Shown one piece after another: positions 333-55,996 of a DNA stretch of 64,000 nt; the stretch's first letter is position 1, and each line of letters begins with the position of its first letter. Below the pieces are notes generated by a model. It was not told where the DNA came from and did not search any database. It saw only the letters and a program-made list of their open reading frames with translations. The DNA is taken from NCBI GenBank assembly GCA_016873715.1, contig VGWF01000001.1, forward strand, positions 394 to 64,393, in the 5' to 3' direction. The translations under genes were made by a program, and so were the position numbers. This DNA comes from Lentisphaerota bacterium (GTDB taxonomy: Bacteria; Verrucomicrobiota; Kiritimatiellia; PWTM01).

Positions 333-563
333 ACAGCGAACATCGAACATCCAACATCGAACACCGAACATCGAACGGCGGACGATCAACATCCAACAAC
401 CAACAACCAACATCCAACAACCAACAGCCAACAACCAACAACCAACATCCAACAACCAACAGCCAACAACCAACCGCGAACACCGAACATCGAACAACGA
501 ACATCGAACATCGAATGGCGGACAGCCAATAGCCAACACCCAACAACCAACGGCGAACAACGG
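331..563. repeat. Heptanucleotide tandem repeat (SAACANC)n of ~33 units. Blocks of GAACATC and CAACAAC are interrupted twice by GGCGGAC.
   Basis: Read directly: 'gaacatcgaacatccaacatc...caacaaccaacaaccaacatccaacaacc...'. It lies between the stop at 332 and the GTG start at 614. Confidence 0.9.
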
Positions 564-613
564 AGTTTGGAATTGAGGGCCGGCGGCCGGACGCCTCGAA
601 GAACGAGGAGGAC

Positions 614-1285: not shown

Positions 1286-1321
1286 CCGCCGGCGCCGCTC
1301 GTCCACCCTTCCCCCGCGCCT

Positions 1322-2641: not shown

Positions 2642-2702
2642 CGTTCTCTCCTTGCGCGGGCGGCCGTCGCGGTGCGCCGGGCCCCGCCGCGGTTCATCCC
2701 TA

Positions 2703-3653
2703 TCACGTCGCGGCGCGTCCCGCCACAGGTTCGGCGGGCATGCGGGCGTGCCGCGTGACGTAGGCGTTGTTGCGGGCGGTGTCGGCGACGCAGTCGGCGA
2801 GGTCGGGATGCTGGGTCTCGTAGACGAACCAGCCGTCGTAGCCGGTCTCCTCGAACGCGGCGAAAGCGGCGGGCCAGTCGATCGGGCCGGGCTCCTCGAT
2901 CAGCTTGTCCTCGTTCTTCACGTGCACCGCGCAGATCCGCCGGCCGAGCAGCTTCACGCCCGGCACCGTCTCGGCGCCGAAGCCGTAGAAGGCCATGTTG
3001 AAAGGGTCGTAGTAGACGCCCACCGACGGCCGGTCGGCGAGGTCCACGAGTTTCCGGTTGTCCGCGGGGCTCAGCGAGTTCTCCAGCCCGAGCATGACGC
3101 CCGCGTCCGCGGCGGCTGCGGCGACGGCCTGCAGGTTCGCCACCATCGGGCCGTAGGAGGCCTCGCGGGTCATGTCCGGTGCCGCGTCCTTGAAGAACGA
3201 GACCAGGATCACGCCGCAGCCGAGCATCTCCGCCGCGCGGATCGACAGGCGCAGGCTCTCGGGCGCCTTCGGGTCGGAAAGGGTGATGCCCTTGTCCCAC
3301 ACGCCGGAGAGCGACGGGACGCGGATGCCCCACCGGTCGCTCTCGCGCTTGTACGCGCGCACGACGTCCCCATCGCGCAGGTTCTTCGCGCCCGACGTCA
3401 CCTGCAGCTCGACGCCCGAGATGCCGGGCATGCCCGCGGCGGCGCGGAGGACGCCGAGATCGCCGACCATCCTCATGCTCGCCGCGCGGATGCCCAGCTT
3501 GAGCGGGCATCGCGCCCGAGGCGCCGGCGGGGCGTCCGCCGCGCGGGCGGCCCCGGGCATCGCGCCCGCCGCCAGCCCCATCACGCAGGACTTGAGGAAC
3601 CCCCGCCGCGCGACGTGGAATCCGTCAGGAGTGGTCATCGTCATCGCCTCCAT
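2703..3653 (-). CDS. Sugar phosphate isomerase/epimerase (xylose-isomerase-like TIM barrel) with a Tat signal (RRGFLK).
   Basis: 316-aa ORF that is a typical partner of Gfo/Idh/MocA genes; same-strand operon with 1322..2641. Confidence 0.8.
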   Translation of the reverse strand: MEAMTMTTPDGFHVARRGFLKSCVMGLAAGAMPGAARAADAPPAPRARCPLKLGIRAASMRMVGDLGVLRAAAGMPGISGVELQVTSGAKNLRDGDVVRAYKRESDRWGIRVPSLSGVWDKGITLSDPKAPESLRLSIRAAEMLGCGVILVSFFKDAAPDMTREASYGPMVANLQAVAAAAADAGVMLGLENSLSPADNRKLVDLADRPSVGVYYDPFNMAFYGFGAETVPGVKLLGRRICAVHVKNEDKLIEEPGPIDWPAAFAAFEETGYDGWFVYETQHPDLADCVADTARNNAYVTRHARMPAEPVAGRAAT

Positions 3654-3947
3654 GTCCTTCTCCGTCGCCTCCGTGCGATCCGTGGCGGGCCTTCCTCCGC
3701 CGCAGCAGGGCCAGGGCCGCGCCCGCCGCGATCAGCACGCCGCCGGCGGATGCCGCGAAGGGTACGCCCGGCCCGGCCGCCGAGGCGAGGCCGATCGGCG
3801 GGCCGACGAGGTGGGCGGGCACCGGCATCGCCGATGCCGTGCATCGATCGGGGAAGCGCCGCGGCGCCCGGGGCCTGCGGTTCGGGCTTGCGCGGGACGA
3901 TGAAACGGCCTATCAAACGACGTAACATTAGTAAATCGAGGTGGGCC

Positions 3948-4763
3948 ATGGCGGTCCGGACGAAGGCGGGCGGGGATGGTCGGTACGCGGTGCCTGCGGT
4001 GGACGGCATGCTGGACATCGTCGAGTTCCTCGCGGGGCAGCCGCGGCCGTGGGGGATCAACGAGCTGGCGCGGGAGCTGGGCATCACGACGAACATGGCC
4101 TTCCGCATCCTGCGGCGGCTGACGGAGCGGGGGTACGTCGAGGCGGCGGGCGAGGGGGGCTACCAGCTCGGCACCCGGTTCTTCTCGCTGGGGATGCGGC
4201 TCTACACGCGGTTCGAACTCCGGGCGCGAGCCCGGCCGCATCTCGAGCGGCTGGCGTCGTCGACCGGGGAGACGTGCCAGCTGCACGTCCTCAACGCCCG
4301 CGGCATGCTGGTGGTCGACGTGGTGAACCCGCGCGCCGACTTCTTCCTGCAGGTCGTGCCGGGCGCGCACCTCAACTGTCACGCCAATGCTTTCGGCAAG
4401 GCGGTGCTCGCGTTCCTGCCGTCCGCGGAGGCGCGGCGGTACCTGGCCGGGAAGCTCGAACGCATGACTGACCGGACGCTGATCTCCGCCGCGGCGGTGG
4501 TCCGCCAGTTCGACGCGATCCGCGCGACCGGCCTCGCCTACGACCGGGAGGAGTACGTGCGGGGCGTCCACTGCGTCGGCGCGCCGGTCTTCGACGCCTC
4601 CGGCGCGGTCGCTGCGGGCCTCGGGACCACGGGCCTGGCGATGGCCCGGGAGGGCGCGGGGGCGGAGACGTGCGAGCGGGCGGTGCTCGACTGCGCCGCC
4701 GCGGTCTCGAAGGACATCGGTTACGCTGGCGAGCGCTTCGAGGCGTGGAGGAAGCGGTCGTGA
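3948..4763 (+). CDS. IclR-family transcriptional regulator.
   Basis: An N-terminal wHTH ('INELARELGITTNMAFRILRRL') and a C-terminal IclR effector domain; ATG at 3948 follows an AT-rich segment. Confidence 0.85.
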   Translation: MAVRTKAGGDGRYAVPAVDGMLDIVEFLAGQPRPWGINELARELGITTNMAFRILRRLTERGYVEAAGEGGYQLGTRFFSLGMRLYTRFELRARARPHLERLASSTGETCQLHVLNARGMLVVDVVNPRADFFLQVVPGAHLNCHANAFGKAVLAFLPSAEARRYLAGKLERMTDRTLISAAAVVRQFDAIRATGLAYDREEYVRGVHCVGAPVFDASGAVAAGLGTTGLAMAREGAGAETCERAVLDCAAAVSKDIGYAGERFEAWRKRS

Positions 4764-7700
4764 ACTCCGCCATTCCCGCCTTCGCCGCGTGCGCAGCGGC
4801 CGTCCTTGCGGCAGCCGCGCCGCCGTCCCGTCCGCATCCGATCGTCGCGTGGCTGCCGCCGGAGTCGCTGCCGTCCGAGCCGGCGACGCGGGCGCTGACA
4901 CCCGACGAAGCTGCGGCGGCCTTGGAGCGCGACTGGCTGTTCCAGTGCGACGGGCGTCCTTCGCGGGGCGCCGTGGAGGCGGAGATCCGGCGCGCACGGC
5001 GCATCGCCACGGCCCTGGCCGACGGCCCCGCGCGGTCCGTTGCATCGTCCGCCCTGGAACGGCTGGCGGCGATCGAGGCCTCCCTGAAGGATCCGGCCGT
5101 CCCGCGGTGCGTACCCCCGCGGCCCGACGGCATCGCCGGACGGTGGTCGTTCGAGGGCACGGACGACGAGGTGTCGGCGTTCAGGCCCCTGGGATCCTGG
5201 GTCTTCGTCGACGGCGTGTTCGCAAACGGAGTGGCGCTCGGCGGCGGCGCCTACGCCGACGCCGGGGCGCAGGCCCATGGCGTCTTCGCAGGGTCCTACT
5301 CGGTGACCGCGTGGATCCGGACCTCGTCGGACGAGGCCGATGTGATCGGGACCGGGGTGGGGCGGGACCACGTCCTGCTGATGGCCTTCCGCGGCGTGGT
5401 GCGGGGCCATCACTGGACGGCCGGCGGTGCGAACGTGATCGACGGAAAGACCCCGTTGGCCGACGGCGCATGGCACCACATCGCGCAGGTCGTCGACGGC
5501 ACGACGATCCGGCTCTACGTCGACGGGAAGCCGGACGGCGAGCAGCCCTTCAAGGGCCGCGCCGCCGTGCCGCCCGCGCCGCTGCTGATCGGCGCGCGGT
5601 CCATGGATCCCGCGTCGCTCCGGTCGAGATTCCAGGGCGAGATGGACGAGATCCTGCTGCTCGGCCGGGCGCTGGGCGCCGACGAGATCGCCGGCCCCCA
5701 CGCCGCCGGGCGCGCCGCGCTGGAGGCATCGGCCGGGGCCTCGCGCGAGCCCTACCTGGCGGTGCGGCGCATCAAGCGCGACCTCATGGTCCGCGACCCC
5801 GCGGTCGACTTCAGCCGCGTCGTCTTCATCGACCAGCCGTATCCGCAGGGCGCGGAATGGGCGCACGAGGCGCGGCACCGCAACGGCACGATGGCCGTGC
5901 CCGGCGGGCGGCTGCTGACGCTCGAAGGCCTGCACCCGGGCGGCACGGTGCGCAAGCTCGCGCCGGCGGACGGCCCCGCCGCGTTCTGGCGGCCGGACGT
6001 GTCGTTCGACGGCCGCCGCGTGCTCTTCTGCATGAAGCCGGCGGCGGAGAAGGCCTTCCACCTGTACGAAATCGGCGCGGACGGAAAGGGGGTCCGCCGG
6101 ATCACGGACGGCGACTACGACGATCTCGACCCGATCTACCTTCCGGACGGGCGCCTCCTGTTCTCGACCTCGCGCGCGAACACCTACGTCCGCTGCATGC
6201 CCTACACGTACGCGTACGTGCTGGCGCGCTGCGACGCGGACGGCAGGAACCTCTACGTCGTCAGCCCCGGCAACGAGCCCGACTGGCTGCCGTCGCTGTT
6301 GAACGACGGACGCGTGATCTTCACGCGGTGGGAGTACACCGACAAGGCGCTGTGGCGGATCCAGAGCCTCTGGACGATGAACCCCGACGGATCCAGCCTC
6401 TCGGCCTTCTGGGGCAACCAGAGCGTCTGGCCCGACATGCTCGTCGAGCCGCGCGCGATCCCCGGGAGCCGCCGCGTGATGTTCAGCGGCTGCGGCCACC
6501 ACGACTGGTTCGGCGGTCCGATCGGCATCGTCGACCCCGCCCAGGGCTTCAACTTCCCCGACGGGCTGACGAAGGTCACGGCCGACGTGCCGTGGGCCGA
6601 GTGCGGGCCTCCGCCGGTCGACCCGGTCGAGAGCGCCGCCTACGAACCCGCCGGCCGGTTCGGCGCGTACAAGACGCCGTATCCGCTCTCCGACCGTCTC
6701 TTCCTCGTCTCGGCGCGCACCGGCGGGCTGAACACGCCGCGGGACAAGCAGCCGGGGAGCTTCAAGCTCTACCTGATGGACGTCGACGGCAACCGCGAGC
6801 TGATCCACGAGGGCGCGTTCAACATCCTCCACGCGATGCCGCTGCGCCCGAGGCCGGCCCCGCCGGTGATCGCCGACCGCGTCGAATGGCCCGGGACCGG
6901 GCCGGACCGCAAGCCCGCCGCGCCGGGCGTGCTCTTCTCGGGGGATGTCATCCAGGGACCGACGCGGATTCCGCGCGGCGAGGCGAAGTGGCTGCGCGTG
7001 GTCGCGATGGACGCGAAGACCTACTCGTCGTGGATCCGCGAGGAGATGCCGCACCAGCACTCGGGTCCGGCGGTTTCGCTGCTGCAGGCCGACGGCGTGA
7101 AGCGGATCGTCAGCGAGGTTCCGGTGGAGGCCGACGGTTCGGTGAACTTCGAGGCGCCCCCGGGCGTGGCGCTGCATTTCCAGCTTCTCGACGGCGGGCG
7201 TCGCGCGATCCAGACGATGCGCTCCTTCGTCGGCGTCATGCCCGGCGAGCGGCGCGGCTGCGTCGGCTGCCACGAGATGCACAGCGTCGCCCAGGTGAAC
7301 GCGCGCGGCGCGGCCCTGGAGCGCGCCCCGTCCGCGATGACGCCGCCGCCGTGGGGCGCGGACACGACGCTGGGCTACGAGCGGTCGATCCACCCGATCC
7401 TGGAGAGGCACTGCGGCGCCTGCCACCAGGGGGACGGCAAGGGGCGGAAGGCCTTCGACGTCACGCTGCGGCCGGGGCTCGGCATCTTCAAGGAGCCCTA
7501 CGTCACGCTCGTCGGCGGGTCGCTGTACCACGGTCCGAAGTCGCTCGAACCGCCCGCGACGATCGCTGGATGCCTGCCGGTCGAAACGTGGCCCACCGCC
7601 GGCGCGCCGGAGGGCGTGCGGACGTTTCCGCCGATGACGTGGATGTCGCGCACGAGCCGCCTCGTGAACCACTACGCCTCCGGGGCGCATCACGCCGAGG

Positions 7701-7930
7701 TGCGGATGCCGGAGGCCGAGCGCCGCGTGCTGGCCGCCTGGGTCGACCTCACCGCGCCCTACCGGGGCGACGAGGAGATCCGCGCGCTGCCCGATCCCGA
7801 CTTCCCCGGCATCGGGGACCTCCCCGTCCGCCCGCGCGTGCGCACCGCGCCGGTGATCGACCGCTTCAACCTGCCCCAGGACGGCGTGGCCAGGGCGATG
7901 TCCGCATCCGCCGGAAAGGCGACGCCATGA
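4760..7930 (+). CDS. Secreted multidomain protein, paralog 1. It has a signal peptide, a LamG/ConA-like domain, a PD40/TolB-like beta-propeller and two CxxCH motifs ('GCVGCHE', 'RHCGACHQGDGKGRKAFDVT', PSCyt1-like).
   Basis: ORF 4670..7930. The GTG at 4760 overlaps the IclR stop (GTGA), and a signal peptide follows it. Conserved blocks are shared with the genes at 7927 and 45528. Confidence 0.85.
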   Translation: MNSAIPAFAACAAAVLAAAAPPSRPHPIVAWLPPESLPSEPATRALTPDEAAAALERDWLFQCDGRPSRGAVEAEIRRARRIATALADGPARSVASSALERLAAIEASLKDPAVPRCVPPRPDGIAGRWSFEGTDDEVSAFRPLGSWVFVDGVFANGVALGGGAYADAGAQAHGVFAGSYSVTAWIRTSSDEADVIGTGVGRDHVLLMAFRGVVRGHHWTAGGANVIDGKTPLADGAWHHIAQVVDGTTIRLYVDGKPDGEQPFKGRAAVPPAPLLIGARSMDPASLRSRFQGEMDEILLLGRALGADEIAGPHAAGRAALEASAGASREPYLAVRRIKRDLMVRDPAVDFSRVVFIDQPYPQGAEWAHEARHRNGTMAVPGGRLLTLEGLHPGGTVRKLAPADGPAAFWRPDVSFDGRRVLFCMKPAAEKAFHLYEIGADGKGVRRITDGDYDDLDPIYLPDGRLLFSTSRANTYVRCMPYTYAYVLARCDADGRNLYVVSPGNEPDWLPSLLNDGRVIFTRWEYTDKALWRIQSLWTMNPDGSSLSAFWGNQSVWPDMLVEPRAIPGSRRVMFSGCGHHDWFGGPIGIVDPAQGFNFPDGLTKVTADVPWAECGPPPVDPVESAAYEPAGRFGAYKTPYPLSDRLFLVSARTGGLNTPRDKQPGSFKLYLMDVDGNRELIHEGAFNILHAMPLRPRPAPPVIADRVEWPGTGPDRKPAAPGVLFSGDVIQGPTRIPRGEAKWLRVVAMDAKTYSSWIREEMPHQHSGPAVSLLQADGVKRIVSEVPVEADGSVNFEAPPGVALHFQLLDGGRRAIQTMRSFVGVMPGERRGCVGCHEMHSVAQVNARGAALERAPSAMTPPPWGADTTLGYERSIHPILERHCGACHQGDGKGRKAFDVTLRPGLGIFKEPYVTLVGGSLYHGPKSLEPPATIAGCLPVETWPTAGAPEGVRTFPPMTWMSRTSRLVNHYASGAHHAEVRMPEAERRVLAAWVDLTAPYRGDEEIRALPDPDFPGIGDLPVRPRVRTAPVIDRFNLPQDGVARAMSASAGKATP

Positions 7931-10900
7931 GAATCGCCTCTTCCGGCCGACACGGAGGTCGGCCCTCCGGCCCGTCGGCATGCCGTTCGGTTTCGCGACT
8001 GGAGGGCCGGGCTCTGTCCCGGCCGTTCCGGTCCGGGGCGCTCGCCGCGTTTCTCAGCCTCGTCGCCGCGGTCGCACCCGCGGCGGAATCGGAAGCCACC
8101 GGTGTCGCGTCGCCGCTGCCCCCGCTGGCGGTTCACGTGAAGCGCGACACCCTCGCTGCGACCCTGCTCGCGAGCCGCGCCGCGCTGGCCGCATGGCGCG
8201 CGGAGCAGGCCGCCGTGCGGCCGGGGCTGGTGTGGGGCCCGTGGTCCGTCAGCGCGGCGGGCAAGCCCGACGCGCCCGCCCCCGCGGTCGATCCCGCGGC
8301 GAAGGACGCGGAGGGCGCGCCCCTCTGGCAGCCGCGGGCCGGATGGAAGGACGGCCAGTTCCTCCCGCTGGTTCCTGCCGGGCAGCCGAACGCGCCCGCG
8401 ACCGTGTGGCTGACGCGAACCGTCGTCGCCTCGCGACCCGCGACGGTGACCGTCGGCCTCGGCGGTGGCGACCGGATCGAGGTGCGGATCAACGGCACAG
8501 TCGCGCACACGCTCGACACCCGCGCCTGCTACGAGCGCTATGGCTGCAGTCTCGCGACGGACACGATCCACGCCGACCAGGTCATGGTGGGTTTGGCGCT
8601 CCCCGCGGGCACGAACCGGCTGACCCTCGGTGTGTCGCAGTCCGACATCGGGCGCCAGGCCCCGTTCCGTCTGTGGTTCTCCTCCGCGCCGAATCCCGTG
8701 CCGCACCTCTGGCAGCGCATCCGCCGCGACTTCCCGCCGTCGGGCCATGCGTTGCTGGAGGCCGTGCCGTACCCGTGGTTCGAAGCCGGGGGCTGGTTCG
8801 ACGCGGACGATTCGCGGCTCGAACGCGCGTTCGTCGCCGATGTCGCGGCCTCCAACGCGCCGCTCGCCGCGCTGCTCGGCCCGCCTCTCGCCGCCCTCGA
8901 GTCGGCGAAGGCCCCGGCCGGCGACCCCCGGTGGCTCGACCTTTGCGTCACCGCCGCGGAGCAGGCGCGGGCGGCGGACCGGCTCGGCCGGCTGGCGGCG
9001 GCGGTGGCGGAACTCGCGCGTTCGCACCCGGCGTATCCGGCGGATCGTCTGCTTGGCGAGATCGACGGGCTGCGCTCGGCGGTTCTTCGCGGCGAGCCGT
9101 CGCGCCCCGCGGTGGACGCCCTCGCGCGCCGCGCCCTGGTGGACGAGAGCCCGCTGCTGAAGGGGCGGAAGCTCCTCTTCTCCCGCCGGTACACGTACGA
9201 CTCGCGGCATTACTACGACGACTACTACGCGGGCCTTCGCGAATGGGGCGGGAACCTCTGCGAACTCGACCCCGCCACGGGCAAGGTCCGCGAGATCGTG
9301 CCGAAGCTCGCGGGCGGTATCTTCGACCGCTACGACCTCTCGCGGGACGGCCGGCGCGTCGTCTTCGGGTATCGCGCGCCGCGGCCCGAGGGCTTCCGCA
9401 TCTGGGAATGCCGCCTCGACGGCTCCGGCCTGCGGCAGCTCACGGCTCCGCCCGCCGACGAGCCGGAGCGCATCGCGCGGCACGCGGGCTACACGCGCGA
9501 GGCGATGGAGAAGGACCCGCGGCTCTACGGTCACTGGACCGACGACCTGCACCCGTGCTACCTGCCCGACGGCCGGATCGTCTTCGTCTCGAGCCGCTCC
9601 GAGCGCAGCGTCCTGTGCGGCGGGCACCCGCTGACCTGCACGACGCTCCACCGGATGGATGCCGACGGCCGCGACCTGCACGAGCTTTCGCAGGGCGCGC
9701 TGACCGAGTCGACGCCGACGCTGCTCGACGACGGCCGCATCCTCTACACGCGCTGGGAGTACGTCTACAAGGGCATTGCCGCCGTCCAGTCGCTCTGGGC
9801 GATGCGTCCCGACGGCACGGCCTCGGAGGAGATCTACGGCCACAACATCGACAACCCCGGCGTCTTCTTCGCCGGCCGCCAGATCCCCGGCGCGCCGGAC
9901 CGCGTCGTCGCCGTCGGCTGCGGCCACGAGCCGCTCGCCGTGGGTTCGATCCGCGTGATCGACCGCGCGAAGGACCGCCGCACGAAGGACGCGATGACGA
10001 GCCTCACGCCCGAGGTCGAGACGCGAAACCTCCGCGGGTTCTTCCAGTACCGCAACGGCCGGTGGAACGCGGAGGACGTGTACGGCCCGTTCTATACCGA
10101 CCCGTACCCGCTCTCGGAGCACTTCTTCCTCGTCTCGCACAACCCGTCCTCGCGGTACAACGACCGCGACGCCTACGGCATCTGGCTGATCGACACGTTC
10201 GGCAACCGCGTGCCCGTGTATGACGACCCGGAGATGTCCTGCTTCCAGCCGACGATCCTCGCCCCGCGCGCCGCGCCGCCCGCGCTGCCGCCGATGATCG
10301 CGGACGAGGCCGCGACCCACGGCGAGGCGACCGTGCTGCTGGTGGACCTCCACCGCGGCTTCACCAACGTCGCGCCGGGCACCGTGAAATACCTGCGCGT
10401 GATGGAGCAGATCCCGCGCTCGTGGGCGGCCTCGCAGGTGCAGCCGGGCGACGGCATCCCCGGCCAGACGACCGCCGTCTCGCTCAACACCCACATCTGG
10501 ATCGGCGTGCTGCTCGGCGTCGTCCCGGTCGAGGCGGACGGCTCGGCGTTCTTCCGCGTGCCGGCGCGGCGCAACCTCTACGTCACCGCGCTCGACGGCG
10601 ACTTCCTGGAAGTCCAGAAGATGCGGACCTTCGTCAACTTCCAGCCCGGCGAGACGCGCTCGTGCGTCGGCTGCCACGACCCGCGCGACGGCACCCCCGT
10701 CACGACGCGGCCGCTGGCGATGAACCGCGCGCCCTCGGCCATCGCCCCGCAGCCCGGCGACGCCGGTCCGCGTCCGATCCACTATCCGTCCGACGTCCAG
10801 CCGGTGTTCGACCGCCACTGCGTCGCCTGCCACGGCGGCGACAAGCCGAAGGGCGGCCTCGATCTGACCGGGGAGATGACGACGCACTTCAACCGCTCCT

Positions 10901-13464: not shown

Positions 13465-14772
13465 ATGCCGTCGCCGCCCGTCCATCTCGCCGCCCTGCTT
13501 CTCGCGCCGCTGACCGTCGCGGCGGCGGGCGGCGGCTTCGAGGGCGGGATCGGCGTGGTGGACATCACGTCCACGGGGGCCGTCGTGCTGGCGGGCTCGC
13601 CGGTCCGGGTGGCGACGGCGGAGGTCGCGAGCCGTCTGCAGGTCCGCGCGCTGGTCCTCGCCGCGGGCGGGCGCAAGGTGGCGATCGTCGCGCTGGACAC
13701 GCTGAAGTACCCCGTCGAGCACGTGGAGCGGGCGCGCCGGCGGATCGAGGAGACGACGGGCATCCCGGCCGGCCACGTCGTCCTCTGCGCGTCGCACACG
13801 CACCGCGGCCCGCTGTGGAGCCACTACGGGGACCAGCTGGTGACGCCCATCGCCGAGGCGGTGGCGATCGCGACGCGCGATCTCGCGCCCTGCAGCCTCG
13901 GAGCGGCGAAGGGCAGGGCCGAGGGCGTCAGCGAGTGCCGGCGGGTGGTCAGGGAGGGCCACGCCTGGAACCGGTGGCAACTGGCCCCCGGGGAAGCCGA
14001 CACGTACCCGGCGGAGGGACCGGCCGATCCGGAATTCGACGTCCTCGCGGTGACCGGCGGCGACGGGAAGCTCAAGGCGATCGTGTACAACTTCGCCTGC
14101 CACGCCGCGAATACGCGGACTTCCGTGATCTCGGCGGACTACCCGGGCGACGTCGAGCGGCATGTCCGGAGCCGTCCGGGCTACGATGTCCCCGTGCTGT
14201 TCCTGGCCGGCGCGTGCGGCGACGTGAATCCGGTCTACAGCGCGGCGCAGGGGCTTCTCGGGGAGCGGCTCGGCGCGGCCGTCATCGACTGCCTTGGCCG
14301 GCTCGAACCCATCGCCGGGCCGTCGCTCTCGGTGGAAGGCCGGGAGCTGCGGATGCCGGGCCGGGAGCATCCGGAGTTCCGGGAGGCCGAGGTTGCCCGG
14401 AACTGGCCCGGGCAACTCGAGCACTACCGGAAGTCCTTCGACGACATGAAGCGGCGGGAGAAGCCGGCCTATCCGTTCGCCCTGACCGGCATCCGGATCG
14501 GCGACCGCTTGGCGATCGCGACCGTCCCCGGCGAGCTGTTCTGCGAGATCGGGATGGCCATCAAGACGCGGTCGCCGTTCCGGCACACGATGGTCGTCGA
14601 ACTTGCCAACGGCGCCCACGGTTACATCCCCACGGCGAAGGCGTTCGAGGGCGGAAGCTACGAGACATGGTTCGGCGAGCATTCCTGCCTCACGACGCGG
14701 GCCGGGGAGATCGTCGAGATGGAGTCGGTGGACATCCTGAACAACCTGAAACGAGCGGAGATGACCCCATGA
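13465..14772 (+). CDS. Neutral/alkaline (non-lysosomal) ceramidase-like hydrolase.
   Basis: 'GIGVVDITSTG' and 'CASHTHRGP' match the neutral-ceramidase N-terminal-domain motifs; there is a signal peptide and the stop overlaps the next start (ATGA). Confidence 0.7.
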   Translation: MPSPPVHLAALLLAPLTVAAAGGGFEGGIGVVDITSTGAVVLAGSPVRVATAEVASRLQVRALVLAAGGRKVAIVALDTLKYPVEHVERARRRIEETTGIPAGHVVLCASHTHRGPLWSHYGDQLVTPIAEAVAIATRDLAPCSLGAAKGRAEGVSECRRVVREGHAWNRWQLAPGEADTYPAEGPADPEFDVLAVTGGDGKLKAIVYNFACHAANTRTSVISADYPGDVERHVRSRPGYDVPVLFLAGACGDVNPVYSAAQGLLGERLGAAVIDCLGRLEPIAGPSLSVEGRELRMPGREHPEFREAEVARNWPGQLEHYRKSFDDMKRREKPAYPFALTGIRIGDRLAIATVPGELFCEIGMAIKTRSPFRHTMVVELANGAHGYIPTAKAFEGGSYETWFGEHSCLTTRAGEIVEMESVDILNNLKRAEMTP

Positions 14773-16526
14773 CACGCACCCGGACCGTGGCCGGCATCCT
14801 GTCGGTCCAGCTGTTCGCCTCCCCGGCCGTCCGCGGTGCCGACGAGGCGGCGTGGGTGCGGTTGAGGGATCCGCTGGACACCAGCGTCGTGAAGGTCGGC
14901 GAGACGATCTTCACGGACCGGCCGTACGCGTTCGAGTCGTATCCCAAGGAGATGGATGGACTGGCCTTCGTGCGCGGCGGCATCGAGTCGACATTCACGG
15001 TCGCGGTTGCGCGCGACGGCATCCTGCGGGCGCTGACGGCCGCGCCGGAGACGAAGGCGGCCCACGGGCAGGCGGCGTCGCTGCGGAGGCTGGGCTTCGA
15101 GGAGGTCGCCGAGGCCGGCCGGCACCAGTTGTTCGGCGCGTCGCCGGCGGACCGCGTCGCGCTCTTCCGCAAGACGGTGAAGGCCGGCGAGAGCTACACG
15201 TTCCATCGCTGGACCGTCGTTGCGGCGGGGCGGATCGAGGAGTCGCCGTTCAAGAAGATGGTGGCGCAGTACGCGCGCGACGAGGCGACCGGCCGGCATG
15301 TGCGGGAGAACCTGCTGTTCCTGCAGCCGGACTACGTGGTCTTCGTGCCGAAGCAGAAGCGGGAGATCGTCGGCGACCGCTACAACGATCACTTCCAGGT
15401 CTTCGACAAGCCGGACGGCACCCTCTTCGCCGCGTGGACGCAGGCGACGCGGGAGGGGGACGTCGACCAGCACGTCTGCTTCTCGCGCAGCCGGGACAAG
15501 GGGCGGACATGGACCGAGCCGGTGATCCTTGCCGGGTCGGCGAGTTACGTGAATCCGCAGCCGATCGCGAGCTGGCAGCAGCCGATGGTGTCGAAGTCCG
15601 GCCGCATCTACATGCTCTGGAACCAGCGCGTGTCGAACGACCCGCTTCACCACGGGATCATGATCGGGAAGTACTCGGACGACGACGGCGACACGTGGTC
15701 GCAGCCGCGCGTCGTGACGCTGCCGCGCGTGAACCGCGACCCGCCCGGCAAGCCGCCGAGCTGGTGCATCTGGCAGCGGCCGCTGAGGCTGGGGAAGGAC
15801 GGGAAGTACCTCGTCGGCCTCACGCGCCACGGCGTCGTCACGGGCGAGACCGCGACCGCCGCGGCGGCGGAGTCGGAGAAGGAGAACAAGGACGGCCGGC
15901 TGCAGTCCAAGCTCGCCGGCTCGACCGTCGAGTTCATCCAGTACGACAACATCGACGACGACCCGGCGATCGAGGACATCCGCGTCGTGCTGCTCGCCGC
16001 CAACGAGAAGGAGATGGCGGTGATCGATCCGAAGTGGGGCCTGTGCTGCCAGGAGGCGGGCATCGTCAACCTGCCCGACGGCCGCCTCTTCGCGCTGATG
16101 CGCACCAGCGCCGGCTCGCCCTACTGGAGCCAGAGCCGCGACAAGGGCCTGAACTGGGATCCGCCGAAGGCTCTGAAGGATGCGGACGGAAAGCCGTACC
16201 TCCACCCGTGCGCGCCGTGTCCGATCTACGACCGCAAGGGCCCCGAGGCCTGCAGCGGCGAGTACTTCGCCTTCGTGTCGAACGAGGAGCGCAGCGAGAA
16301 GAACTCCTACAGCCCGCGCGGACCGCTCTTCCTGATCGCCGGCAGGTTCGACTCGCAGGGCGAGCAACCGATCCGCTTCGCCGCGCCCAAGCCCTACCCG
16401 TCGCGCCCCTCGGGCAACGCCTTCTACACGAGCCTCACGGTGGTCGACGGCCTGACCGTCCTCTGGATCCCCGACTGGAAGCACTTCCTGATCGGCAAGA
16501 TCATCGGCGACGAGTGGTTCGAATAG
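14769..16526 (+). CDS. BNR/Asp-box repeat protein (sialidase-like) with an N-terminal extra domain.
   Basis: Asp-boxes SRSRDKGRTW, SDDDGDTW and SQSRDKGLNW; a signal peptide is present. Confidence 0.75.
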   Translation: MTRTRTVAGILSVQLFASPAVRGADEAAWVRLRDPLDTSVVKVGETIFTDRPYAFESYPKEMDGLAFVRGGIESTFTVAVARDGILRALTAAPETKAAHGQAASLRRLGFEEVAEAGRHQLFGASPADRVALFRKTVKAGESYTFHRWTVVAAGRIEESPFKKMVAQYARDEATGRHVRENLLFLQPDYVVFVPKQKREIVGDRYNDHFQVFDKPDGTLFAAWTQATREGDVDQHVCFSRSRDKGRTWTEPVILAGSASYVNPQPIASWQQPMVSKSGRIYMLWNQRVSNDPLHHGIMIGKYSDDDGDTWSQPRVVTLPRVNRDPPGKPPSWCIWQRPLRLGKDGKYLVGLTRHGVVTGETATAAAAESEKENKDGRLQSKLAGSTVEFIQYDNIDDDPAIEDIRVVLLAANEKEMAVIDPKWGLCCQEAGIVNLPDGRLFALMRTSAGSPYWSQSRDKGLNWDPPKALKDADGKPYLHPCAPCPIYDRKGPEACSGEYFAFVSNEERSEKNSYSPRGPLFLIAGRFDSQGEQPIRFAAPKPYPSRPSGNAFYTSLTVVDGLTVLWIPDWKHFLIGKIIGDEWFE

Positions 16527-16666
16527 CCGCCGCCACGGAACGAAGGCGTCGAAGTCGAGGGGCGCCAAACCAGGAGGGAGCAGAAACTCCAGGATCCGCC
16601 GCCGGCCAGTCGTCGCCCTTCTCCGCTTCCGCCCCCGGCGCTCGGCGCCGGTGAACCGACCGTTCC

Positions 16667-18358
16667 GTGCTCGACACCCATGCGGCCCCGAACGACTATG
16701 CCGCCGTGAATCAGGACAAGCCCCAACGGACGGCCGCTCGGGCCGCGGCGGAACCTGACCGGCCTCTGCCCGGCTGCGCCGGGACGGCGGCGTGCAGCGT
16801 TCTCGTCCGGTTCGCTTTTCTCGCTGCCCTGTGGCTCGCGCCGCTCGCGGCCCCGCCCGCCGAAGGCGCGCCGCGCGACCCGAACATCGTTGTGATCCTT
16901 GCCGATGACCTCGGCTACGGCGACGTGGGGTGCTACAACGACCGGGCCCGGGTCCCCACGCCCAACCTCGATCGCCTGGCGCGCGAGGGAATGCGGTTCA
17001 CCGATGCCCACAGTCCGGCGACCGTGTGCACGCCCTCGCGCTACAGCCTGCTGACCGGGCAGATGGCGTTCCGCGTTCCGCGCGGCGGCACGGTCTTCGA
17101 GGCCGTCGGCGGGCCGTCGCTGATCGCGCCCGGGCGGCTCACGCTGCCGGGCATGCTCCGGGCGCGCGGCTATGCCACGGCGTGCGTCGGCAAGTGGCAC
17201 GTCGGTCTGACGTTCTTCGACAAGGAGGGCCGGCCGGTCCGCGGCGGCGGCGTGGAGGCGGTCCGGCGCGTGGACTTCTCGCGCCGCATCGAAGGCGGAC
17301 CGGTGGACCACGGATTCGACACGTTCTTCGGCACGGCGTGCTGCCCCACGACGGACTGGCTCTACGCGCTCATCGAGGGCGACCGTGTGCCCGTGCCGCC
17401 CGCGGGCCCGCTCGACAGGACCCGGTTGCCCCGGCATCCCTACGCCGACGACTGCCGGGCCGGCCTGATCGCCACGAATTTCCCGATGGAGGAGATCGAC
17501 CTTCTCTTCCTCGCGAAGAGCCGCGAGTTCATCGAGTCGCACGTCCGCCGCGCGCCGGACAAGCCGTTCTTCCTCTACCACGCCGCGCAGGCGGTGCACT
17601 TGCCGTCGTTCCCGGCGGAACCGTTCAAGGGCAAGACCACGGCCGGTCCGCACGGGGATTTCATCTTCGAACTCGACCACGTCGTGGGGGAACTGCTGGC
17701 CACGCTCGATCGAGCGGGGGTGGCCGGCAACACGCTGGTCCTCTTCTCCAGCGACAACGGGCCCGAGACCGCCGCGGTGGTCCACATGCGCGCCGACCAC
17801 GGCCACGACGGCGCTCGGCCCTGGCGCGGCATGAAGCGCGACAACTGGGAGGGCGGCCATCGCGTCCCGTTCCTCGTCCGCTGGCCCGGCCGGGTGAAGG
17901 CCGGCGCGACCAGCGCGCAGCTCGCCAGCCTGACCGACGTGATGGCGACCGTCGCCGCGATCATCGGGGCCGACCTGCCGCGGGATGCGGGCGAGGACAG
18001 TTTCAACCTGCTGCCCGCACTGCTCGGCACGGACCGCGGCCCCATCCGTCCCTACCTGCTCCAGCAGGCCTTCGGCGGGGCGCAAACGCTCTCCATCCGC
18101 CGGGGAAACTGGAAGTACCTCGACCACGCCGGCTCCGGCGGCAACCGCTACGAAACCCATCCCGGACTCAAGAAGTTCATACTCCCCGACACCGCGCCCG
18201 GCGCGCCCGGCCAGCTCTACGATCTCGACGCCGACCCCGGCGAAACGAAGAACCTCTTCTTCGAGCAACCGCAGATCGCGAAGGAACTGAAGGCGCTGCT
18301 CGAGCAATCCAAGGCGTCCGGCCGCAGCCGCGAGGACCGGGCCAACCGCCAACCCTGA
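16667..18358 (+). CDS. Sulfatase (Cys-type; FGly motif CTPSRYSLLTGQ).
   Basis: 'ILADDLGYGD' metal-binding N-terminus plus C-x-P-x-R. The start is uncertain (GTG 16667 or GTG 16709). Confidence 0.85.
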   Translation: MLDTHAAPNDYAAVNQDKPQRTAARAAAEPDRPLPGCAGTAACSVLVRFAFLAALWLAPLAAPPAEGAPRDPNIVVILADDLGYGDVGCYNDRARVPTPNLDRLAREGMRFTDAHSPATVCTPSRYSLLTGQMAFRVPRGGTVFEAVGGPSLIAPGRLTLPGMLRARGYATACVGKWHVGLTFFDKEGRPVRGGGVEAVRRVDFSRRIEGGPVDHGFDTFFGTACCPTTDWLYALIEGDRVPVPPAGPLDRTRLPRHPYADDCRAGLIATNFPMEEIDLLFLAKSREFIESHVRRAPDKPFFLYHAAQAVHLPSFPAEPFKGKTTAGPHGDFIFELDHVVGELLATLDRAGVAGNTLVLFSSDNGPETAAVVHMRADHGHDGARPWRGMKRDNWEGGHRVPFLVRWPGRVKAGATSAQLASLTDVMATVAAIIGADLPRDAGEDSFNLLPALLGTDRGPIRPYLLQQAFGGAQTLSIRRGNWKYLDHAGSGGNRYETHPGLKKFILPDTAPGAPGQLYDLDADPGETKNLFFEQPQIAKELKALLEQSKASGRSREDRANRQP

Positions 18359-48425: not shown

Positions 48426-48548
48426 CCTTCCAACCCTTGGACGCCGCGGCCTGCCGACGGTCCAAGGGTTGGAACCCCGCGCGGTCCGGGCTTGCGCCGG
48501 CCGGCCATCCTGGGCCACGCTGCCGTTGTCGAGCGTGGAGGACCGGAC

Positions 48549-50114
48549 ATGAGCCGAGGAATGCGGCGTCGGGATTTCGTGGGGTTGTGCGGTGCGGCGG
48601 CGGCGGTCCCGTGGGCCGGGCGCGGGGCGGGGGCGGACCGTCCCAACATCCTGTTCGTCTTCGCGGACCAGCTTCGCTCGATGGATCTGGGCTGCTACGG
48701 GAGCCGGCAGGTCCGGACGCCGCACATCGACCGGTTGGCGCGCGAGGGCATGCTCTTCACGAACGCGATCAGCACGGCGCCGGTCTGCTCGCCGTTCCGC
48801 GCGATGCTTCTGACCGGAAACCACCCGATGAAGAACGGCATGGTCTACAACGACCACTTCCTCCGCAACCCGACCCCCTGCTTCGCGGAGGCCTGCAAGG
48901 CCGTCGGCTACCGCACCGGCTACATCGGCAAATGGCACGTCGACGGCGCGGGCCGCTCGGCGCGCATCCCGCCGGAGCGACGGCTCGGCTTCGATTTCTG
49001 GCGCACGCTGGAATGCACGCATGCCTACTTCAAGTCGCCGTACTACCACCAGGACGAGGCGACGCCGCGCACGTGGGAGGGCTACGACGCCGCCGCGCAG
49101 ACCGGCGCGGCGTGCGGCTTCATCCGGGACCGTCAGGCGGGCCGCCCGTTCTGCCTGTTCCTGTCGTGGGGCCCGCCGCACGATCCCTACGTCGCGCCGC
49201 CGGAGTACATGAGGCGGTTCGATCCGGCGGGGATCGAGATGCGGCCGAACGTCGACGACTTCGCCGCGGCGGAGCGGATGCGAGCCGAGTGCGACACGGA
49301 GCTTCCGGCCGGCTTCGCCGTCAACCGGCGGCGGCTCGTCGCCTCGCTGAGCGACCGCTCGAACGCCGCCGTCCGCGAGTGGTACCGCGGCTACTTCGCC
49401 GCGATCGAGGCGCTCGACGACTGCATGGGCCGGCTGCTCGCGGCACTGAAGGAGGCCGGCGAACTGGACCGCACGGTGGTGGTGTTCACATCGGACCACG
49501 GCGACAGCCTCGGGTCGCACCGGCAGTACGGGAAACAGATGCCCTACGAGGAATCGATCTCCGTCCCGTTCCTTGTCCGCCATCCGCCGGCGGTTCCCGC
49601 CGGCGCGAGGACCGACGCGCTGCTCGCCCCGCTCGACATGATGCCGACCGTGCTCGGCCTCGCCGGCGTGCCGTGCCCGGCGGTCGACGGCCGCAGCCTC
49701 GCCGACGTCGTGCGCGGGCGCCGCGCGGACGACCGCGATGCGGTGCTGATCCAGAACACGACCTGGATCGGCACGAACTGGATCGCGAACGGCGCCGGCC
49801 CGTGGCGCGGCGTGCGGACGAAGACGCACACCTACGCGCGCCGGTCGGACACCCGGAAGCCGTGGATGCTGTTCGACAACCGGGCCGACCCGTACCAGAT
49901 GACCAATCTCGTCGACCGCCCCGGGCACGCCGCGCAGGTCGCAGCGCTCGATGCGCGGACGACCGAGCTGTGCGCCGAGGCCGGGGATCCCGAAGATCCG
50001 GTCCGCATCGCGAAGCTGATCCAGGACGAGCGCCGCTCCCGCGGACTCGACGAGCGGGCCGCGGACCTTCTGCCGGCCCGCGTCGAGCCGGGGAGCGGGT
50101 TTCGGGATCTGTGA
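48549..50114 (+). CDS. Sulfatase (CSPFRAMLLTGN) with a Tat signal (RRRDFVGLCGAAAA).
   Basis: Sulfatase motifs; an RBS 'ggagga' lies upstream. Confidence 0.85.
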   Translation: MSRGMRRRDFVGLCGAAAAVPWAGRGAGADRPNILFVFADQLRSMDLGCYGSRQVRTPHIDRLAREGMLFTNAISTAPVCSPFRAMLLTGNHPMKNGMVYNDHFLRNPTPCFAEACKAVGYRTGYIGKWHVDGAGRSARIPPERRLGFDFWRTLECTHAYFKSPYYHQDEATPRTWEGYDAAAQTGAACGFIRDRQAGRPFCLFLSWGPPHDPYVAPPEYMRRFDPAGIEMRPNVDDFAAAERMRAECDTELPAGFAVNRRRLVASLSDRSNAAVREWYRGYFAAIEALDDCMGRLLAALKEAGELDRTVVVFTSDHGDSLGSHRQYGKQMPYEESISVPFLVRHPPAVPAGARTDALLAPLDMMPTVLGLAGVPCPAVDGRSLADVVRGRRADDRDAVLIQNTTWIGTNWIANGAGPWRGVRTKTHTYARRSDTRKPWMLFDNRADPYQMTNLVDRPGHAAQVAALDARTTELCAEAGDPEDPVRIAKLIQDERRSRGLDERAADLLPARVEPGSGFRDL

Positions 50115-50565: not shown

Positions 50566-51579
50566 ATGAACGCGATCCGGTACGGCGTGGCGATCGGGAT
50601 GGCGGCGGCGGCCTGCGGGGCGGGGGAGCCCGTGCTGGCGCCGGGCGTGCGGCTGCAGGCCGACGGCAAGGACATCGACGTCGAGATCGGTCACCTCGTG
50701 CCCTGCGTTGCCGATTGGAACGGCGACGGGCGAAAGGACCTCCTCCTCGGCCAGTTCAGGGAAGGCCGCATCCGCTTCTATCCGAACACCGGCACCGACG
50801 CGCAGCCGGAGTTCAAGTCCTTCGAGCTTCTCTCCGCCGGCGGAACACCCATCCGCCTGGACGCGGGGTGATGCGTGGGCTCGTATCCACAGGTTGTGGA
50901 TACCAACAACGACGGGCTGCCGGACATCGTCAGCGGTGATGCGAGTGGCGCGGTGTGGCTGTTCCGGAACGCGGGGACGCGGACGCAGCCGAATCTGGCC
51001 GTCGGCGAGCGCGTGAAGGCCGGAGGCGTGCCCATCGAGGGGACGCGTCGGCGCTACGAGAAGGGGGCCGACGGCCGCTTCCGGGTGATTTCCGAAACCA
51101 ACGCCGTGAGCGGCGTCTATTCGAAGCTCCACCTGGCCGACTGGGATGGGGACGGACTGCGCGATCTGCTCGTCGGCCAGGACGGACCCGCCGGTCAGGA
51201 TCTCGTTGTCTATCGCAACGCGGGCGCCGCGGACCGCATGGAGTTGGAGGCGCCCGTGCCCCTTGCGCTGCCGGGGCCGCAGATGTCCCGTCCGTCGATG
51301 CTGCTGTTCGACTGGGACGGCGACGGGAAGACGGACGTGCTCTGCGGCACGGAGAACGCGCGGATCGTCTTCTTCCGGCGCACCGGCGACGGTCGGGCGC
51401 CGACGTTCGCCGAAGGGGTGGACCTGAAGCTGGAGGGCCCGGGCTTCGAGAAGAGCTACCGGTGCCGCCCGTGGGTTGCCGACTGGAACAACGACGGCAA
51501 ACCCGACCTGCTCGTCGGCAACATCTACAGCGACGCGAAGAAGGCCGGCGGCAACGTCTGGCTCTTCCTGGCGAAGTGA
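50566..51579 (+). pseudogene. FG-GAP/VCBS-repeat lipoprotein interrupted by an in-frame TGA at 50869-50871. It may be a pseudogene, a sequencing error, or a recoded (selenocysteine?) gene.
   Basis: The two track ORFs (50173..50871 and 50875..51579) are in the same frame. Five FG-GAP repeats (DWNGDGRKD, DTNNDGLPD, DWDGDGLRD, DWDGDGKTD, DWNNDGKPD) span the stop. Lipobox 'AAAC'. Confidence 0.55.
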
Positions 51580-52266: not shown

Positions 52267-54135
52267 ATGAGACCCGACCTTGCGTTGTTCGTTGCCGCCG
52301 GACTGACGGCGCTCCGGCTGGGGGCCGCGGAGCCGGGCCCGAACGTCCTGCTGATCACGGTGGACGACATGAGCGCGGAGTCGATCGGCGCCTTCGGCTG
52401 CCGGCTGAAGGACACGACGCCGACGATCGATCGCCTCGCGCAGCGCGGCGTCCGGTTCAGCCACGCGCACGTCGTGGTCGCCAACTGCATGCCGTCGCGA
52501 AACGTCATGTGGTCGGGTCTCTACCCGCACCGGAGCGGGGTCGAGGGGTTCTACCAGGTGCCGACGGCGAAGTACCCGCACCTCGTCGACCTGATGAAGG
52601 GCGCCGGCTACTTCACCGCGATCCGCGGCAAGATCTCGCACTCGACGCCCTACACGCCGTACGCCTGGGATGCCGAGTTGGAGACGATGCCCGACGGATC
52701 GAAGGTCCACCCGAAGAACGCGAAATCGTACGGCCACTCGACGGCCGAGGGCATCCGGCTCGCGAAGGCCGCCGGGAAGCCGTTCTGCCTGCTGATGAAC
52801 ATCTCGGATCCGCACAAGCCCTTCTACGCCGAGGGGAAGAACGGCGAGACGGTGCCCGATGCGAACGTTCCGTCGCGCGTCTTCACGCCGGACGAGGTCC
52901 CGGTGCCGGGCTTCCTGTTCGACGACCCGGTCGTCCGCAAGGAGCTCTCGCACTACTACTCGAGCGTGCGGCGCGCGGACGATTGCGCCGCGGAGATCCT
53001 CGCCGCGCTGAAGGCGGCGGGCGCGGAGACGAACACGCTGATCGTGTTCCTGTCCGACCACGGCATGCCGCTGCCGTTCTCGAAGACGCAGGTCTATCAC
53101 GACAGCACCCGAACGCCGCTCTTCTTCGTCTGGCCCGGCCGGCTGCCGGAGGGCCGTGTGGACGACCGGCACATGGTCTCGACCGTTGACCTGCTTCCGA
53201 CGCTGCTCGATCTGCTCGGCATCGTGCATCCGGGCACGATGGACGGCCGGTCCTTCGCCTCGTTGCTCCGGGGCGGGGGGGATGGCGGTCGCGAGTGGGT
53301 GATCAAGGAGTACAACGAGAACTCCGGCGGAAACCGCAATCCGATGCGCGCGATCGAGAGCCTCGACGACCTCTACATCTTCAGCCCCTGGGCCAACGGC
53401 GAGCGGACGATGGCGACGGCCACGATGGGCACGCCGACCTACCGCCGCATGGCCGCGATGGCGGGGAGCGACGCGGCCATCGCGGCGCGGCACGAGCTGT
53501 TCGTCCACCGCGTCCCCGAGGAGCTCTACGCGGTCGGGCGCGATCCGGACTGCCTCACGAACCTCGTCGCCGACGCGTCGTCCCGGGGCCGTCTCGACCG
53601 CAGCCGCTCGACGATGGAGACCTGGATGGCCGAGACCGACGATCCCATGCTCGCCACCTTCCGGCAGCGGGGCGACGCGGCGGCGCGCGAGGCGTTCATG
53701 TCCGGCCAGGTCGCCGCGGCGCAGGACCGCAAGGCGGACAAGCCGAAGAAGGGCGCGAAGCGCGCCGCGGCGGCGGAGAAGGCGGATGCCGCCAGGCCCC
53801 GCGCCGCGGGGAAGAGCGCCGGCGCGAAGGCCCTCATCGCCATCGAGCCGCCGGACGTGGTGGCGGCCGGCACGACGGTCGTCGTGCGCATCCGCCACGA
53901 GCTGCCCGCGGACCTGGGCGAGCAGGTGCTGACGGTGACCGCCAAGGAGGGGCAGGCGGGGGAGCGGCTCGACCGGACCACCGTCAAGGCGCGGGGGACG
54001 GGCGTCGCCGAGGCGTCGCTGAAGATTCCCGCCGGCGTCGACACCGCCGTCAGCTTCGCCGCCTTCGTCGGCGAGGACTTCAAGGCGACCCGCCAGCACG
54101 TCATCACCGGGCCGGTGCCGGTGCTTCAGCGATGA
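52267..54135 (+). CDS. Sulfatase (CMPSRNVMWSGL) with a Lys/Ala-rich linker and a C-terminal domain.
   Basis: Signal peptide and sulfatase motifs; C-terminal '...KADKPKKGAKRAAAAEKADAARPRAAGKSAGAKA...'. Confidence 0.85.
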   Translation: MRPDLALFVAAGLTALRLGAAEPGPNVLLITVDDMSAESIGAFGCRLKDTTPTIDRLAQRGVRFSHAHVVVANCMPSRNVMWSGLYPHRSGVEGFYQVPTAKYPHLVDLMKGAGYFTAIRGKISHSTPYTPYAWDAELETMPDGSKVHPKNAKSYGHSTAEGIRLAKAAGKPFCLLMNISDPHKPFYAEGKNGETVPDANVPSRVFTPDEVPVPGFLFDDPVVRKELSHYYSSVRRADDCAAEILAALKAAGAETNTLIVFLSDHGMPLPFSKTQVYHDSTRTPLFFVWPGRLPEGRVDDRHMVSTVDLLPTLLDLLGIVHPGTMDGRSFASLLRGGGDGGREWVIKEYNENSGGNRNPMRAIESLDDLYIFSPWANGERTMATATMGTPTYRRMAAMAGSDAAIAARHELFVHRVPEELYAVGRDPDCLTNLVADASSRGRLDRSRSTMETWMAETDDPMLATFRQRGDAAAREAFMSGQVAAAQDRKADKPKKGAKRAAAAEKADAARPRAAGKSAGAKALIAIEPPDVVAAGTTVVVRIRHELPADLGEQVLTVTAKEGQAGERLDRTTVKARGTGVAEASLKIPAGVDTAVSFAAFVGEDFKATRQHVITGPVPVLQR

Positions 54136-55920: not shown

Positions 55921-55996
55921 GCCAGCTTAGCTCAGCCGGTAGAGCAGCTGATTTGTAATCAGCAGGTCGTCGGTTCGATCCCGACAGCTGGCTCCA
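55921..55996 (+). tRNA. tRNA-Thr (anticodon UGU), 76 nt with encoded CCA.
   Basis: Manual cloverleaf: acceptor GCCAGCT/AGCTGGC, D-arm GCTC-AGCCGGTA-GAGC, anticodon arm GCTGA-TTTGTAA-TCAGC, T-arm GTCGG-TTCGATC-CCGAC. Confidence 0.85.

Follow-up and report, generated by a model that had tools for sequence, protein, structure and literature searches.

A 64,000-nt stretch of a Lentisphaerota bacterium genome (GenBank assembly GCA_016873715.1, contig VGWF01000001.1; the whole stretch is referred to here as the window) carries, at positions 50566-51579 of the forward strand, a gene for FG-GAP repeats that is crossed by one in-frame TGA. The question raised by this locus is whether that codon ends translation, reflects damage or error, or is read as selenocysteine (Sec). 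The first-pass annotation of this DNA had noted that the FG-GAP frame runs on through the TGA at 50869-50871 and that the next residue would be Cys, and it had proposed a Sec codon served by a bacterial selenocysteine insertion sequence (bSECIS) element. These proposals are supported by Pfam FG-GAP matches on both sides of the TGA, by a TGC at 50872-50874, by conservation of the TGA, by a hairpin that fits the bSECIS model and is under RNA-level selection, and by Sec machinery in related metagenome-assembled genomes (MAGs). We estimate at roughly 0.9 the probability that 50566-51579 is one gene whose product is a secreted beta-propeller of five FG-GAP/VCBS repeats, possibly anchored to lipid, and that its codon 102, a UGA, is recoded to Sec.

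An in-frame UGA conserved among orthologues

Between the ATG at 50566 and the terminator TGA at 51577-51579 there is exactly one internal in-frame stop, and the translation around it reads '...RLDAG*CVGSYPQVVDTNNDG...'. Pfam analysis of the joined protein identified FG-GAP_3 (PF13517, E 2.6e-28, 98.8 bits with a cut-off of 26.9) in four stretches lying on either side of the stop, and FG-GAP (PF01839, E 1.5e-14, 53.9 bits with a cut-off of 22.1). These matches above the gathering thresholds, five D-x-N-x-D-G motifs and a propeller-like structure model place the protein among the FG-GAP/VCBS repeat beta-propellers. The D and G columns of the motif were invariant in two homologue alignments, and the predicted Sec occupies the context G-U-C-[VIL]-G-[AS]-Y-P, immediately ahead of the D-x-N-x-D-G loop of blade 2. 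The structure model was made for P0020, a Sec-less orthologue standing in for the window protein; AlphaFold (AF2) predicted an all-beta propeller with a predicted local distance difference test score of 88 and a predicted template modelling score of 0.86. The top Foldseek matches of this model in the PDB were FG-GAP propellers (TcB of Tc toxins, Psathyrella lectin, ITFG2, UmbA4 and integrin alphaV), with template modelling scores to seven-bladed propellers of 0.27-0.55, low values of the kind that a smaller propeller should give. No sequence homologue was found in the PDB at E<=0.001.

We then searched the joined sequence against 5.8 billion proteins. Among the top 120 homologues, whose identity goes down to 47%, nearly all were 207-238 aa long and covered only the C-terminal 65-69% of the query, indicating that gene calls start just past the stop. 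When the N-terminal 130 residues served as query, about 100 clusters of 89-125 aa were retrieved that covered only the part before the stop, and all 44 of those checked ended exactly at residue 101. The cut halves carry the NCBI names 'VCBS repeat-containing protein' or 'hypothetical protein'.

DNA was collected from one genome per GTDB species and aligned to the joined protein by tblastn. Alignments to 28 orthologous loci (41-85% identity) covered residues 1-337 in one frame, and the codon aligned to 50869-50871 was TGA in every one of them, across at least six phyla (loci from Verrucomicrobiota, Kiritimatiellia, Victivallales, Phycisphaerae, Pirellulales, Planctomycetaceae, Tepidisphaeraceae, Desulfobacteraceae, Sumerlaeota and KSB1). 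The aligned codon was likewise TGA in 13 loci at a greater distance (28-38% identity), and it is TGA in about 20 more distant paralogues; a motif scan returned 49 TGA sites in 43 sequences. A scan of metagenome contigs for the exact nucleotide signature of these sites (given below) added a further 46, of which 45 aligned in one frame across a TGA at residue 102 and one reached the contig edge before a full alignment. A 99%-identical contig from the Joint Genome Institute (JGI) has the gene split at the same place. The UGA is thus found at the same codon with coding conservation on both sides. In the codon alignment the internal codon was TGA in 29/29 sequences and never TAA or TAG, whereas the true terminators of the 28 orthologous genes were mixed (TAG in 15, TGA in 7, TAA in 6). 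This indicates that UGA still functions as a stop in these organisms and that the internal UGA is a specific, selected signal.

Two loci contain several family members each. JANQEH010000279.1 (L038) holds a tandem array of six paralogous FG-GAP selenoprotein genes (TGA at 319, 1620, 3015, 4394, 5710 and 7109) in different frames with a spacing of about 1.3-1.4 kb, each with a G-TGA-TGY…hairpin site; OW818685.1 (L023) holds a tandem pair, with TGA sites at 9018 and 10262. During alignment, a MAFFT run mixing N- and C-terminal fragments was discarded, as it misplaced the first blade of the C-terminal fragments onto blade 1.

Cys directly follows the predicted Sec at 47 of the 49 motif-scan sites, the other two (L025 and L027) having Ser. 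Distant homologues with Cys only keep this +1 Cys and have Gly at the Sec column, for example 'GSGCMGC', which contains a CxxC motif, and 'SSGCGAP'. A few distant relatives carry the TGA elsewhere in the loop: L059 ('EG*IGAYP') is the only one with TGA on the conserved Cys column, L050 ('GG*GSC') has U-G-S-C with UxxC spacing, and L033 reads 'GC*GS…'. These shifts suggest repeated repositioning of Sec inside one functional loop. P0020 (L084; JGI Ga0364475_12878140, 482-1495) was the sole full-length orthologue found without the TGA, with CGA-AGC (Arg-Ser) replacing TGA-TGC, and its lineage has probably lost the use of Sec. A HMMER search with P0020 for full-length Cys-type orthologues was uninformative, its matches being swamped by giant multi-repeat FG-GAP proteins. 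Judged by comparison of these sequences, the predicted Sec loop is a conserved chalcogen site for which true Cys-for-Sec orthologues are essentially absent.

A hairpin linked to the UGA

A perfect 8-bp stem-loop 12 nt past the UGA, with a geometry like that of bacterial SECIS elements, had been reported in the first-pass annotation. We confirmed this core hairpin, UAUCCACA-GGU-UGUGGAUA at 50884-50902, and found it to be one pair longer, with G50883-C50903 extending the stem to 9 bp. Local folding returned it as the centroid structure (-11.9 kcal/mol); the apical loop lies 20 nt from the UGA. The published bSECIS model comprises an apical loop of 3-9 nt, an upper stem of 4-16 bp, a G in the first two loop positions, a UGA-loop spacing of 16-37 nt and a minimum free energy of -7.5 kcal/mol or lower (PMC13188914 Fig. 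2 legend). The window hairpin, with its 3-nt loop, lies within all of these limits, and A-GGU-U fits the pattern N1-G-[G/U]-N-N2 with G at the first loop position. Folding of a 66-nt stretch was unremarkable on its own against shuffles (z = -0.26, in 71% GC sequence); the single-sequence z-score was dropped as a criterion since it is not significant in a GC-rich context, and the case for the hairpin therefore rests on comparative evidence.

Pairing was evaluated over 42 sequences with the TGA, aligned without gaps. Bases were paired in 81% of cells, compared with 32-47% when the 3' partner was slid by 1-3 columns, and three pairs were invariant. Double changes from AU to GC were observed at pairs 29-45 (7 sequences), 33-41 (3 sequences, plus one G-U) and 35-39 (4 sequences), together with one CG to UA change at pair 34-40.

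Similarly, synonymous sites were analysed in the codon alignment of 29 orthologues, whose loci span 40-72% GC. Synonymous entropy was zero at Tyr (TAT, 29/29), Pro (CCA, 29/29) and two Val codons (GTT, 20/20; GTG, 29/29), and the Asp codon at the hairpin was GAT in 26/29. Codons +4 to +9 had a synonymous mean of 0.32 bits against a gene mean of 1.29, the lowest anywhere in the gene.

As a control for coding artefacts, we compared homologous blade positions with and without an upstream TGA. Sites with a TGA (n = 52) formed 5.75 of 6 core pairs, and had T as the wobble base in 52/52 and G as the Val wobble base in 51/52; sites without one (n = 89) formed only 2.67 of 6, with wobble T in 30/89 and Val wobble G in 12/89, and a single site was fully paired (1/89). 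In P0020 the corresponding codons are TAC CCG CAA GGC GTG GAC, and the hairpin-specific choices are gone. Sites of the family share the near-invariant signature TGA-TGY-N3-GGN-N6-CCA-N6-GTGGAY. Comparative data of this kind indicate that the hairpin is under RNA-level selection tied to the presence of the TGA, and its geometry bears out the resemblance to bacterial SECIS elements proposed earlier.

Export, selenocysteine machinery and rival explanations

Nearly all of 41 family members have a basic N-region followed by a hydrophobic stretch, typical of a signal peptide, and canonical lipoboxes (IAGC, LLGC, LAGC) are present in some orthologues. The earlier description of the window protein as a lipoprotein holds in part: the signal peptide is clear and orthologues have lipoboxes, but the window copy itself has a weak, lipobox-like 'AAAC' site. 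One distant member (L071) ends in a type IX secretion system (T9SS) C-terminal sorting domain (PF18962, E 6e-12). The family appears to be extracytoplasmic. A signal peptide is missing from the part encoded past the TGA, and two separate products would therefore reach different compartments. Nor is any in-frame start codon conserved downstream of the TGA: TGA TGC ATC GGN… is the sequence in many genes, with differing GTG or ATG codons further on being picked by gene callers.

We searched 1.18 Mb of related DNA for Sec machinery. In JAPLNB010000176.1 (L066), selD, tRNA-Sec (anticodon tca), selA and selB lie in a row at 14084-18171, within 10 kb of a Sec-less FG-GAP paralogue and in the same MAG as a TGA-containing orthologue (L008). 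In JALOPY010000073.1 (L071, region 25-8154), selB, selD and tRNA-Sec lie about 3 kb upstream of that contig's own TGA-containing family member; selA was not found in the 8.6 kb examined there. The selD gene of L071 carries a TGA of its own, aligned with E. coli Cys17 ('CAG*ASK'), and would encode a Sec-type SelD, a form already known by its UxxK motif (PMC13188914 Table 1). Two Sortilin/BNR-repeat genes lie between the Sec machinery and the family member in L071.

Seen by itself, the in-frame stop of the window sequence could reflect a recent nonsense mutation, and hence a pseudogene, or an assembly or sequencing error at 50869-50871, alternatives that the first-pass annotation had itself raised. 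These are refuted by the identical TGA in all 28 orthologues, in the distant loci and paralogues and in 45 metagenome contigs from independent assemblies, by the same split in the 99%-identical JGI contig, and by protein-level conservation of both halves, so that their probability is practically nil. The UGA could instead be a real stop separating two polypeptides of 101 and about 234 aa, perhaps a split propeller, with the hairpin serving translational coupling or mRNA stability. All public gene calls split there, and a GTG at 50875 offers a possible start in the window copy. This arrangement is nevertheless very improbable given the lack of a conserved start, the signal peptide on the N-terminal part only, a break lying within a repeat unit, the co-occurrence of Sec machinery, and an internal stop that is always TGA in genes whose real terminators are of all three kinds. 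Hairpin-stimulated insertion of a standard amino acid (Trp, Cys or Gly) at the UGA, through programmed read-through or recoding independent of SelB and Sec, would agree with the Gly at the Sec column of Cys-only homologues, with an inserted residue that is not identifiable by sequence alone, and with a 64-kb window devoid of sel genes. Against it stand the exact fit of hairpin geometry and loop to the bSECIS model, the use of UGA as terminator in 7/28 of these genes, which shows that the codon is not reassigned, and two family-bearing MAGs with selD, tRNA-Sec and selB, one of them with a Sec-type SelD and the genes 3 kb away. Moreover, a sense codon would be expected often in place of the TGA and was seen once in about 95 genes. 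We consider standard-residue recoding unlikely, at the level of a small residual chance.

Several observations weigh against recoding to Sec itself. None of tRNA-Sec, selA, selB and selD was found within the 64-kb window, a result that says nothing about the genome as a whole. No homologue with Cys at the exact Sec column was found, which is unusual for selenoproteins. Cys homologues aligned to Sec are the usual discovery criterion (PMC12013277), a customary support and not a mechanistic requirement; the first-pass annotation had expected such a Cys among orthologues, and the column instead holds Arg in P0020 and Gly in Cys-only relatives. The covariation score was reached by 0/500 shuffles, a statistic that overstates independence as the sequences are related, and the P-x-V-V-D peptide motif by itself predisposes the sequence to some of the stem (CCN … GTGGAY), making the pairing partly coding-dependent. 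Finally, the chemistry of the U-C site is conjecture, our best guess being that this site, on the cell surface or in the periplasm, binds a soft metal or metalloid or works as a selenenylsulfide redox couple. With these points taken into account, recoding by the canonical SelB/SECIS pathway is still very probable, given the comparative evidence and the established route of bacterial Sec insertion, and we infer that selenium is actually incorporated at the UGA.

Proposed function, surroundings and place among known selenoproteins

In the mechanism that we propose, the hairpin would act as a bacterial SECIS element and bring SelB·GTP·Sec-tRNA(Sec) to a ribosome paused at the UGA, where Sec would be inserted at codon 102 in place of termination. 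The full-length chain of 337 residues would then be exported via its N-terminal signal peptide and fold outside the cytoplasm, with Sec102 and Cys103 forming a vicinal selenol/thiol pair in the loop ahead of the blade 2 D-x-N-x-D-G motif. A selenenylsulfide at this pair would have a parallel in the GCUG site of eukaryotic thioredoxin reductase. With low confidence, we slightly prefer metal or chalcogenide binding over selenenylsulfide redox; most 'CU'/'UC' families are associated with metals or organometallic chemistry (PMC13188914 Table 1).

The features of the locus and of the rest of the window are collected in Table 1. No conserved gene neighbours were found across 42 loci, and operon structure therefore offers no hint of function. 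In 6/42 loci, the window among them, a sulfatase gene is located no more than about 6.5 kb away, and the upstream sulfatase of the window is also present in the 99%-identical JGI contig. The sole Rfam match in the window at gathering thresholds was a tRNA. No convincing second in-frame-TGA selenoprotein emerged when the window was scanned with filters on GC content at third codon positions (GC3). On the reverse strand at about 61260, a TGA lies in frame between high-GC3 open frames of 171 and 60 codons ('…SSPNA*WCGPS…'); the likeliest reading is a normal stop codon after which a frame happens to stay open.

Table 1 Positions of the predicted selenoprotein gene, its elements and other features in the window
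Feature	Positions	Strand	Evidence or remark
Predicted selenoprotein gene, complete	50566..51579	+	337 codons (predicted Sec = codon 102) plus terminator; open reading frame calls, translation, Pfam, tblastn
Predicted N-terminal export signal, ~20 residues, MNAIRYGVAIGMAAAACGAGEP	50566..50631	+	Possible lipobox Cys17
In-frame UGA, putative Sec (residue 102)	50869..50871	+	TGA kept across orthologues, never TAA/TAG
Cys103 (TGC), putative vicinal Sec-Cys dyad in G-U-C-[VIL]-G	50872..50874	+	
Candidate bSECIS-type hairpin	50883..50903	+	9-bp stem, 50883-50891 with 50895-50903; apical loop GGU 50892-50894
DTNNDG, D-x-N-x-D-G loop of repeat 2	50899..50916	+	Overlaps hairpin 3' arm; sequence and translation
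D-x-N-x-D-G equivalents	50713-50730, 51139-51156, 51310-51327, 51481-51498	+	Sequence and translation
True terminator, UGA again	51577..51579	+	
Sulfatase genes (PF00884) flanking the predicted selenoprotein gene	48492-50114 and ~52267-54135	+	E 4e-58 and 2e-40
Putative lipoprotein, 161 residues	51630-52115	-	No Pfam match
tRNA-Ala(cgc)	157-236	-	ARAGORN
tRNA-Thr(tgt)	55921-55996	+	ARAGORN; sole tRNA confirmed by Rfam

The E. coli fdhF SECIS has a bulged U, whereas the hairpin of this family is a simple helix, 6-9 bp long and capped by a 3-5 nt loop, that lacks the bulged U, and the family is new to the class. In other respects it resembles canonical bacterial selenoprotein genes, whose prototype is fdhF (Zhang & Gladyshev consensus, per PMC13188914): the UGA with a stem-loop in the coding region, the small G(G/U) loop, the 16-37 nt spacing from UGA to loop, the stable upper stem and the sel genes in relatives are all alike. 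The recoding device is a standard bSECIS and is not mechanistically new. The adjacency of Sec and Cys is shared with the vicinal Cys-Sec ('CU', 'GxUC') families SaoL (MerB-like), HgcA, SaoC, MbdU, KCU-star and CopZ-like 2Fe-2S (PMC13188914 Table 1; 10.1101/2022.07.06.499078), whose database entries are, as here, typically cut at the Sec codon; those families have unrelated folds and contexts, whereas the order here is U-C, within G-U-C-x-G, in a beta-propeller blade. A Sec near Cys in a non-thioredoxin fold is likewise found in DUF1573 (PF07610, 'UGC') and other exported selenoproteins (PMC13188914 Table 1), but DUF1573 has no sequence relationship to this family, for which Pfam and NCBIfam scans gave FG-GAP-type matches only. 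Known FG-GAP/VCBS propellers (integrin alpha head, Psathyrella velutina lectin, TcB, ITFG2) have the same D-x-N-x-D-G-x-x-D repeats and were matched by Foldseek; unlike them, the present protein has only five repeats in about 315 mature residues, and no Sec has been reported in those proteins.

The May 2026 catalogue of 119 prokaryotic selenoprotein families contains no FG-GAP, VCBS or propeller entry in its Table 1 (PMC13188914). No model of NCBIfam release 20 matched the protein, XAC2610_fam appearing below threshold only, and the family is unmentioned in the deep-Sep paper and its supplements and in the BSepDB article, whose main text covers 111 families. Furthermore, full-text literature searches for selenoprotein or selenocysteine together with FG-GAP or VCBS returned nothing relevant. 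Judged from published catalogues, NCBIfam and the literature, and without direct comparison to the BSepDB and RefSeq selenoprotein sets, we lean towards the view that the family is truly undescribed. Discovery pipelines need a known Sec homologue or Cys homologues among the top matches (PMC12013277), and the absence of Cys/Sec pairs may explain why this family was overlooked.

The family ranges over the Planctomycetes-Verrucomicrobia-Chlamydiae (PVC) superphylum, Sumerlaeota, KSB1, WOR-3, Desulfobacterota and Nitrospirota-related MAGs, with T9SS tails in some members and tandem arrays of up to six genes. The balance of evidence is somewhat in favour of its being the first recognised FG-GAP/VCBS beta-propeller selenoprotein, a large and broad exported or cell-surface family whose invariant Gly-Sec-Cys-x-Gly site, with essentially no Cys-for-Sec orthologues, would imply selenium-specific extracellular chemistry. 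If confirmed, it would add to the bacterial selenoproteome a structurally new family, a non-thioredoxin beta-propeller outside the cytoplasm, in host lineages (Planctomycetota, Verrucomicrobiota/Kiritimatiellia and Lentisphaerota) for which the selenoprotein reviews consulted name no families. Confirmation would also correct hundreds of split or misannotated public gene calls, for which the nucleotide signature described above is an easy marker in annotation pipelines, and the extracellular Sec-Cys site is a testable biochemical target. Sec that is essentially never replaced by Cys would, in turn, bear on what selenium does beyond sulfur.

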